From IMG/VR virus record IMGVR_UViG_3300017776_000014, positions 1-57,568 of that record: a stretch of 57,568 nt of DNA. The stretch is one strand, 5' to 3'. The stretch comes from a virus. Position numbers and translations under genes: made by a program. The stretch's first letter is position 1; the number at the start of each line of letters is the position of its first letter. The notes beneath the pieces are model-generated. The model had not been told where the DNA came from, ran no database searches, and saw only the letters and a program-made list of their open reading frames with translations. Positions 19,028-19,672 of the stretch are shown here, one piece after another.

Positions 19028-19672
19028 TTATTGAATAAGATGCCAATGGCGTTTGTATATGTGTAAGCTACCTACATTCCATTCTATTGGACCTACGAAT
19101 ACGTCAAGATCTAATGCGAGCTGGAAGGATACGGAACGTTGCCATGCGACATCATTCATATAGCCGAATACTGCATCGTTGCTACGCATGTTAACTAAAG
19201 TGTGCAAATATTTGTTACGTATAAAGTACTGTACGTTTGTTGTGCACATGTGGTCGTTCATGCCGTTTGTGCTATCATCGCGGTGCATTGTAGGACGTGT
19301 GTAGTACATTACGGCGCGACGACTGCATGGGTTATGACTTAACTCGTTCCATACGTTTGTATATTGATGGCCGTTTTGTGCGCTGTAAATTGCCCAGCCG
19401 TAGTTGCTGTTGATGTTACCATCTTTATCTGCTACGGATTTCCATATCTGCACTTCTTTTCCGTATAGGTCGAAGAGGTAGTTTACGTTACAGCGTTTTG
19501 ATTGGTACCAGAGTAACTCTGCGGCTATGTAGTCATCGTTTGGTGTGCCGAAGATTGAACCTGAATCTGCTGTGAAGGATGCGTTGATGATTTCGTATGT
19601 ATCATTTTGAAATACATTGCGTTCTTTCAGGTCTCTGAATTGTTCTCGTATATACTCTACGTTTCTTACCAT
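19028..19672 (-). CDS. ThyA-family pyrimidine C5 transferase (thymidylate synthase homologue; candidate dCMP hydroxymethylase or methylase)
   Basis: Catalytic Cys context HMCTTNVQYF, then MRSNDAVFGYMNDVAW (compare QRS.D.FLGLPFNIASY) and GSLHIYKRH (compare GD.HIY.NH). Confidence 0.8.
   Translation of the reverse strand: MVRNVEYIREQFRDLKERNVFQNDTYEIINASFTADSGSIFGTPNDDYIAAELLWYQSKRCNVNYLFDLYGKEVQIWKSVADKDGNINSNYGWAIYSAQNGHQYTNVWNELSHNPCSRRAVMYYTRPTMHRDDSTNGMNDHMCTTNVQYFIRNKYLHTLVNMRSNDAVFGYMNDVAWQRSVSFQLALDLDVFVGPIEWNVGSLHIYKRHWHLIQ

Follow-up and report, generated by a model that had tools for sequence, protein, structure and literature searches.

What does a marine phage make with a thymidylate synthase homologue that it does not appear to need for making thymidylate? 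The question is raised by the uncultured virus genome IMGVR_UViG_3300017776_000014 from IMG/VR, which was analysed over its whole length of 57,568 nucleotides (nt; hereafter the window). It encodes a flavin-dependent thymidylate synthase (ThyX) and, separately, a protein of the ThyA family at positions 19028-19672. A first-pass annotation made from the letters alone had placed the latter in a cytosine-modification pathway mirroring the gp42/gp56/cd/td set of phage T4, with 5-hydroxymethylcytosine (5hmC) or 5-methylcytosine (5mC) as the possible product. We interpret the locus as encoding a T4-type hydroxymethylase of deoxycytidine monophosphate (dCMP) with a helper pathway that would lead to DNA carrying bare 5hmC, and estimate the probability of this overall reading at roughly 0.8. 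All genes of the window for which coordinates are given here lie on the minus strand, except that of the ribonucleotide reductase.

The open reading frame (ORF) at 19028-19672 has an ATG start and encodes 214 amino acids (aa). Its family matches are Pfam PF00303 (Thymidylat_synt) at 5.4e-18, where 65.5 bits compare with a cut-off of 24.3, and phrog_160, the thymidylate-synthase family of PHROG, at 4e-42. In a search against all PDB sequences its best match is T4 gp42 (1b49, E 4.9e-57, residues 24-213), and E. coli ThyA is matched at 7e-10 only. Likewise, a tblastn search of 50,697 phage records returned gp42 of T4-like phages at about 50% identity. Pairwise identities are 49% to T4 gp42, 27% to ThyA, 25% to RB69 gp48 and 22% to gp59 of Xanthomonas phage Xp12. 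The NCBIfam ThyA equivalog models score 58 bits on the protein, against cut-offs above 300 (327 for NF002497). This score, together with the Asp at position 177 (E. coli numbering), rules out a canonical ThyA. By contrast, the ThyX of the window (221 aa, 16454-17119; PF02511, 4e-44) passes the equivalog cut-off of its own family (TIGR02170, 134 bits against 88) and matches PDB entry 6j61 at 5e-35, which confirms the ThyX call of the first-pass annotation; the ThyA-like enzyme is therefore unneeded for the synthesis of dTMP. The match to T4 gp42 and the residue signature described below lead us to regard the ORF as very probably a deoxycytidylate 5-hydroxymethyltransferase (dCH, or 5hm-dCMP synthase).

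The Asp at the base-specificity position had been read from an alignment by eye, and it holds in proper alignments with solved structures and with E. coli ThyA. In the HMMER alignment to solved structures, RSNDAVFGYMNDVAW pairs with T4 RSNDVVFGFRNDYAW, which sets D174 of the window on T4 Asp179; the Asn of the D179N mutant structure 6l18 falls in the same column. MAFFT alignments that include E. coli ThyA set D174 on E. coli Asn177. The remaining functional residues of the window enzyme have their T4 equivalents (in brackets) in the same order: E52 (E60), S89-x-Y91 (S94/Y96), R118/R119 (R123/R124), D140 (D145), C143 (C148), R163-S164-N165-D166 (R168-D171) and H204/Y206 (H216/Y218). The catalytic cysteine C143, in the motif HMCT, aligns with that of T4 FMCT (C148; E. 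coli C146); all 12 aligned sequences and 120/120 nearest homologues have Cys in this column. The folate-activating Glu (E52) and the phosphate-binding R118, R119, R163 and S164 are conserved. In E. coli numbering the window enzyme, T4 gp42 and the 120 nearest homologues all keep E58, W80, Y94, R126, C146, R166, S167, H207 and Y209. In the ternary complex of T4 dCH, Asp145, three residues before the catalytic Cys, and Ser94-x-Tyr96 form the hydroxymethylation signature (PMC6400193), which is complete in the window as D140-H-M-C143 and S89-N-Y91.

The window enzyme thus shares with T4 gp42 (PDB 1B49/1B5E/6A9B) about 50% identity over residues 24-213 and all catalytic, specificity and hydroxymethylation residues, and both lack the long C-terminal stretch with which ThyA closes its active site. 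It is shorter (214 aa versus 246 aa), without the 7-residue insert and the C-terminal tail of about 20 residues of the T4 protein, and is encoded by a 57-kb podovirus rather than a 169-kb myovirus. Judged by every available sequence criterion, the protein fits a T4-type 5hm-dCMP synthase.

Four positions (E. coli numbering) separate the known activities within this fold. Substitution N177D selects dCMP, and L143D/E correlates with hydroxymethyl over methyl products (PMC13326640). In the MetaGPA study, the residues that differ most between phage contigs with and without cytosine modification are those at 177 and 147 (PMC8670742). At positions 143, 147, 169 and 177 the window enzyme reads D, T, D and D, exactly as T4 gp42 does, while the order is E, T, N, D in RB69 gp48, N, P, D, D in the Xp12 dCMP methylase (gp59), L, H, D, D in gp35 of pelagiphage Kolga and L, H, D, N in E. 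coli ThyA. The pattern is not peculiar to the window: Asp occupies positions 143, 169 and 177 in 120/120 nearest metagenomic homologues, and 119/120 have Thr at 147.

These positions bear on the alternative of an Xp12-like dCMP methyltransferase and of DNA containing 5mC. An Asp at the position of E. coli N177 is common to dCMP methylases, and the MazG-like and DUF1599 proteins of the window, described below, are homologous to gp60 of Xp12. However, position 143 is Asp as in T4, not Asn as in Xp12 or Leu as in ThyA and Kolga; position 147 is Thr, not Pro (Xp12) or His (ThyA and Kolga); the Ser-x-Tyr and Asp-x-x-Cys signature is complete; and the identity to T4 gp42 is 49%, against 22% to Xp12 gp59. 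The cofactor balance points in the same direction. Hydroxymethylases and ThyX release tetrahydrofolate (THF), whereas methylases release dihydrofolate (DHF). The methylase cassettes of Xp12 and of Janthinobacterium phage Donnerlittchen accordingly carry a dihydrofolate reductase (DHFR), and Pfam, PHROG, NCBIfam and tblastn searches found no DHFR in the window. With a hydroxymethylase and ThyX, both C5 enzymes would release THF, so that no DHFR would be needed. T4, in comparison, uses the ThyA-type td together with DHFR. We therefore regard a methylase as highly improbable. Of the two bases first suggested, 5hmC is strongly favoured by Asp143, Thr147, the Ser-x-Tyr motif and the lack of DHFR, and 5mC is disfavoured.

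We also have to consider a third product, which the first-pass annotation had not raised, as some genes long annotated as dCMP hydroxymethylase proved to make 5-hydroxycytosine (PMC13326640). These flavin/O2-dependent 5-hydroxy-dCMP synthases, RB69 gp48 and DLP3 gp80, likewise have the thymidylate-synthase fold, carry N177D and an acidic residue at 143, and serve a phage-encoded, pre-replicative cytosine modification as proposed for the window; an enzyme of this type would take the first step towards O-glycosylated 5-hydroxycytosine. Their mark is D169N (NAR 2026, PMC13326640), which is absent here: the window has D166 in RSND where RB69 gp48 has RSQN, and all 120 nearest homologues keep the Asp. 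The window enzyme furthermore has Trp80 and Tyr209 (E. coli positions) as opposed to Ile/Ala and Phe in RB69 gp48, to which it is only 25% identical. Neither arabinose-pathway genes nor any sugar-nucleotide or arabinosyltransferase gene is present in the window. We give this alternative next to no weight and retain the T4-type hydroxymethylase.

The companion genes named in the first-pass annotation could be recovered by family searches. The zinc deaminase of the dCMP/cytidine deaminase family (147 aa, TTG start, 6834-7277) matches PF00383 (1.3e-24) and PF14437 (4e-15), with HAE and PCxxC motifs visible in its translation. A MazG-like nucleoside triphosphate (NTP) pyrophosphatase of the PRA-PH family (141 aa, 12402-12827; PF01503, 7e-9; phrog_671, 3e-24) is a candidate dCTPase/dUTPase. 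Its nearest solved relative is DR2231, a MazG-like NTP pyrophosphohydrolase of Deinococcus matched by the family profile at 5e-9, and the metal-binding acidic residues E49, E50, E53, D68 and D72 are invariant in the family. The DUF1599 protein ("nucleotide modification associated domain 1"; 93 aa, 14622-14903) scores 24.4 bits with PF07659 (3.7e-5), just below the cut-off of 25, and matches phrog_18404 at positions 172-251; the assignment is supported by its metagenomic homologues, most of which carry PF07659.

In the proposed pathway the conserved residues would act as follows: Cys143 attacks C6 of dCMP, Asp174 recognises and protonates cytosine N3, Glu52 activates methylene-THF, and Asp140, Ser89 and Tyr91 hold the water that adds to the exocyclic methylene, yielding 5-hydroxymethyl-dCMP (5hm-dCMP) and THF. 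Deoxynucleotides would be supplied by a ribonucleotide reductase, whose large chain (588 aa, 40742-42508, plus strand) matches PF02867 (1.3e-117), together with a glutaredoxin/thioredoxin-fold protein (81 aa, 12820-13065; phrog_22, 1.5e-12). The latter has a CPFC motif, its near-identical gene in locus L001 carries PF00462, and it is the probable reductant of the reductase. The MazG-like protein, probably with the DUF1599 protein, would hydrolyse dCTP, and perhaps dUTP, to the monophosphate, thereby feeding the hydroxymethylase and keeping plain cytosine out of the DNA. The deaminase would divert part of the dCMP to dUMP, which ThyX would convert to dTMP. Finally, a host kinase, or one of the phage that has escaped recognition, would phosphorylate 5hm-dCMP, and the resulting 5hm-dCTP would be incorporated by the family-A DNA polymerase of the phage (608 aa, 9934-11760; PF00476, 1.5e-16), which would have to accept this substrate. 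Bare 5hmC in the virion DNA would then protect it from host nucleases. Family membership, residue signature, gene content and co-occurrence are what the sequences show; from these we infer the enzymatic activities, the role as dCTPase, the phosphorylation and the state of the virion DNA.

The role of the deaminase can be seen differently. Some related deaminases, encoded beside thymidylate-synthase homologues with Asp177 in the cytosine-modification module of other phages, are reported to act on 5mdCTP and 5hmdCTP and not on dCMP, and expression of seven of them led to 5-hydroxymethyldeoxyuridine in plasmid DNA (bioRxiv 10.1101/2024.12.05.627091). The window deaminase belongs to the same Pfams, PF00383 and PF14437, and could in principle turn part or all of a 5hm-dC pool into 5hm-dU, giving DNA with 5-hydroxymethyluracil. 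However, in that account such deaminases are proposed to stand in for a second thymidylate synthase in 5mC phages, whereas the window has a bona fide ThyX, and its deaminase lies 12 kb from the dCH gene rather than abutting it. ThyX needs dUMP, which a dCMP deaminase classically supplies, T4 being an example. Conversion to 5-hydroxymethyluracil is thus very unlikely, and we prefer a deaminase that feeds ThyX within the 5hmC pathway.

Whether the hydroxymethyl group stays bare depends on what else the genome encodes. None of the ORFs of the window contains a glycosyltransferase, carbamoyltransferase, kinase or aminotransferase domain in Pfam, PHROG or NCBIfam searches, and T4 beta-gt found nothing below E 0.7 by tblastn (T4 alpha-gt itself was not used as a query), so that the first-pass annotation was right in seeing neither a glycosyltransferase nor a kinase of deoxynucleoside monophosphates (dNMPs). 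In view of this lack of a recognisable glycosyl-, carbamoyl- or other transferase, bare 5hmC is the most likely base of the virion. It is nevertheless conceivable that 5hmC is an intermediate, which a small early ORF or a host enzyme decorates further by glycosylation, carbamoylation or amination into a hypermodified cytosine. T4, RB69 and, in what the MetaGPA work relates of them, the carbamoyltransferase phages use the C5 hydroxyl as a handle for such transfers; about 15 ORFs of the early region have no family assignment, and relatives of dCH elsewhere adjoin conserved proteins of 340 and 389 aa and C5 DNA methyltransferases. These neighbours are absent from the window, though, and the unassigned early ORFs encode at most 160 aa, compared with 351 aa for T4 beta-glucosyltransferase. 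To our knowledge all known DNA glycosyltransferases are larger than 160 aa. We consider a decorated product unlikely, if not negligible, and give slightly better than even odds that the 5hmC is left undecorated.

Several observations weigh against this pathway. T4 gp1 is annotated in the T4 record as the kinase converting hm-dCMP to the diphosphate, but the window has no homologue of T4 gp1 or RB69 gp45 (tblastn, nothing below E 0.7), and a Walker A motif occurs among its ORFs only in a protein of 1179 aa encoded among the structural genes. With no dNMP kinase detected, the flux to 5hm-dCTP is unproven. Similarly, a homologue of T4 gp56, which itself matches PF08761 (dUTPase_2), could not be found in the window by tblastn (nothing below E 0.7), and BLASTP and hhalign comparisons of gp56 with the MazG-like protein were negative. 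In its place the window has the MazG-like and DUF1599 proteins. The first-pass reading of a T4-like set stands, in which the MazG-like protein can only be a functional analogue of gp56, with a predicted substrate role. The RHR motif of ThyX is KHK in the window (QLVKHKFLRWNEISRRY versus T. maritima QWFRHRIASYNELSGRY) in what is otherwise a full-length ThyX equivalog, and the logic of the pathway would change if this variant were inactive. The profile of the DUF1599 family has no match among PDB sequences, and the best Foldseek match of its model in the PDB is not significant (E 1.3). Furthermore, the genes of the module are spread across 13 kb (6834-19672) instead of forming the usual operon. 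Owing to the missing kinase and the unproven dCTPase we lowered our estimate for the virion DNA, which we nonetheless still think likely to contain substantial 5hmC.

Should the virion DNA indeed be substituted, this would have practical consequences. Modified DNA biases virome libraries that depend on restriction, transposases or the polymerase chain reaction, and complicates nanopore base-calling. DNA with 5hmC would also shape which restriction or glycosylase defences of the host work.

The association of these genes is not confined to the window. When IMG/VR was scanned by alignment, relatives of the enzyme turned up in at least 585 loci (65 clusters at E 1e-30 or better in a 50%-identity representative library). 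We fetched 80 of these, added seven loci from other assemblies and counted neighbours within 10 kb of the dCH gene in the resulting 87 loci. A DUF1599 homologue is present in 77/87, mostly abutting the dCH gene; a dCMP deaminase follows in 58, usually immediately downstream of dCH, and a MazG-like protein in 57. ThyX was seen near dCH in 7/87 loci, and T4 gp56 and T4 beta-glucosyltransferase in one each. Where a partner gene is missing, the contig is in many cases short and stops close to dCH. Typically MazG comes first, followed by one or two variable genes, then DUF1599, dCH and the deaminase, and the DUF1599 and deaminase genes frequently share a few bases with the dCH gene.

A comparable gene set has been reported from cytosine-modified viromes. 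The MetaGPA work showed the contigs with this module to derive from DNA in which cytosines resist enzymatic deamination or restriction (eLife 2021, PMC8670742; bioRxiv 10.1101/2024.12.05.627091). Of all Pfam domains, PF00303 had the strongest association with cytosine-modified phage DNA, and PF01503 and PF00383/PF14437 co-occurred with it (PMC8670742); of the deaminase genes on modified contigs, 70% had a thymidylate-synthase homologue within 3 kb (bioRxiv 10.1101/2024.12.05.627091). The window contains the same three Pfams, and its PF00303 protein has Asp177 and, at 147, a residue other than His. Its genes extend across 13 kb of the early region, however, whereas the module as described there is clustered within 3 kb, and it adds ThyX to the set. 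DUF1599, here the most constant neighbour, was not found in the passages of these papers on the module (PMC8670742; bioRxiv 10.1101/2024.12.05.627091). The idea of a cytosine-modification gene set is hence backed by the same companions in about 80 other phage loci and, as far as the accounts of the module extend, in the cytosine-modified contigs.

The enzyme type is known, and the three-gene module has been described from phage metagenomes, so that the window is a further instance and our result extends earlier work rather than being a discovery. A modest novelty lies in the lineage, a marine podovirus of the type of Roseobacter phage CRP-7, in the pairing with ThyX where DHFR is missing, in the apparent absence of any dedicated kinase or transferase, and in how strongly DUF1599 is linked.

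A direct link between DUF1599 and MazG is seen in Xp12, the DNA of which has all its cytosine as 5mC. Its gp60 (L094, NC_073033, 6473-9076), annotated as "HAD superfamily hydrolase", is a fusion of MazG (residues 49-138) and DUF1599 (175-248) and lies directly upstream of the dCMP methylase (gp59), deaminase (gp58) and DHFR (gp57). The MazG-like protein of the window is 35% identical to residues 49-138 of gp60 (5e-12), and its DUF1599 protein is 36% identical to residues 175-248 (9e-16). Xp12 follows the same logic as proposed for the window, i.e., removal of dCTP, modification of dCMP at C5 and deamination. It differs by a C5 enzyme of 22% identity with other residues at the product-determining positions 143 and 147, by carrying DHFR, and by uniting in one polypeptide the MazG and DUF1599 parts that are separate genes in the window. 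Donnerlittchen (L095) has the same layout, with DHFR in the cassette and a MazG+DUF1599 fusion as the upstream gene. PHROG family 18404 likewise spans both MazG and DUF1599. In Serratia phage PS2 DUF1599 lies directly upstream of gp42, and in Pelagibacter phage Kolga (L093, MT375529, 8956-11092) DUF1599 (gp36), the thymidylate-synthase homologue (gp35) and a MazG-like protein (gp34), 39.5% identical to that of the window, are adjacent. Kolga gp35, recorded as "putative thymidylate synthase", has Asp177 but Leu143 and His147 and is methylase-like in this respect, so that the DNA of Kolga may carry 5mC.

The AlphaFold2 (AF2) model of the window DUF1599 protein (predicted local distance difference test, pLDDT, 90.7) has three long helices and one short one. 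Residues K20, D23, Y24, K49, R52, S55, E65, E68, D69 and D73 are invariant, among them a basic patch (K20, K49, R52) and an acidic cluster (E65, E68, D69, D73). Neither the hhalign comparison of DUF1599 with the MazG family nor those of gp56 with both were significant (probability at most 3%). Among the top 50 Foldseek matches, which are weak and suggestive only, the all-alpha NTP pyrophosphatases DCTPP1, E. coli MazG, HisE and dimeric dUTPase recur. Our reading is that DUF1599 works with MazG on a pyrimidine deoxynucleoside triphosphate; its basis is the fusion in Xp12 and the adjacency in dCH loci, not detected homology. The linkage (77/87 loci and the Xp12 fusion) in any case offers a testable lead on a domain of unknown function. 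One may go further and combine these points: a widespread marine podovirus lineage of the CRP-7 type would make bare 5hmC DNA with a minimal set, having no dNMP kinase of its own and pairing dCH with ThyX so that DHFR is not needed, and DUF1599 would be the second half of a dCTP-specific MazG+DUF1599 pyrophosphatase, a near-universal partner of all dCMP-modifying thymidylate-synthase homologues, whether for 5mC or 5hmC. This joint reading is tentative, and we hold it rather doubtful as a whole.

Between the MazG-like and DUF1599 genes the window has an ORF of 151 aa (13648-14103), homologues of which occupy the corresponding place in loci L036 and L072 and adjoin MazG in L005 and L007. It was considered as a hidden kinase and rejected, being PD-(D/E)xK nuclease-like with invariant D60 and D70-V71-K72. 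Its AF2 model (pLDDT 93.9) has Hjc resolvase, DpnI and PvuII as best, though weak, Foldseek matches (E 0.03-0.1). A role as junction resolvase, or as a nuclease directed at unmodified DNA, is conceivable; whether the protein belongs to the pathway is uncertain. In 17 other loci the same operon slot holds an ORF of 148 aa, whose profile hidden Markov model matches no protein of the window.

Other neighbours recur around dCH elsewhere. A C5 DNA cytosine methyltransferase (PF00145) occurs in 29 loci (e.g., L089, 12769-13974), and two proteins without Pfam match, of 389 and 340 aa, in 24 (L041, 5629-6798) and 22 loci (L076, 7714-8736), respectively. All three, which lack homologues in the window, might be downstream enzymes that modify 5hmC. 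In loci L005-L007, from a related phage lineage with a dCH 56% identical to that of the window, about ten tandem genes of about 200 aa each lie immediately upstream of dCH (e.g., L005, 2842-9991), with no Pfam recorded.

Self-comparison shows nt 1-123 to be identical to nt 57446-57568, which makes the window a complete genome of about 57.4 kb that is terminally redundant or was assembled as a circle. Near-identical contigs are present in four other public assemblies, while megablast of positions 17000-22000 found no relatives at the DNA level among the 50,697 phage records. The closest cultured genome backbone is that of CRP-7 (MK613349), a marine podovirus of 58.1 kb and 40% G+C from a group ubiquitous in ocean viromes (PMC6918029). 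The two are alike in genome size and G+C content and syntenic in their replication genes, with 59% identity in the major capsid protein, 49% in the primase-helicase, 36% in the RNA polymerase and 34% in the DNA polymerase; 12/55 window proteins match the first 40 kb of CRP-7. By these sequence comparisons we assign the phage to the uncultured marine podoviruses, as a distant CRP-7 type with a T7-like RNA polymerase.

The annotation of CRP-7 over its first 40 kb is without a thymidylate-synthase homologue, ThyX, deaminase or DUF1599, and the MazG of CRP-7 has no BLAST-level relation to the MazG-like protein of the window. The absence of the module genes from that annotation suggests that the cytosine-modification module is an accessory acquisition of this branch. 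If the virion DNA is 5hmC-substituted, pre-replicative synthesis of 5hmC reaches beyond the T-even myoviruses to marine podoviruses of the CRP-7 type.

Scans of the window for tRNAs and Rfam families were empty. Two stretches, at 54300-57445 and 21020-22340, contain only very short ORFs (40-100 aa), and repeat scans showed nothing notable; these gene-poor stretches may represent early small genes or regulatory regions.

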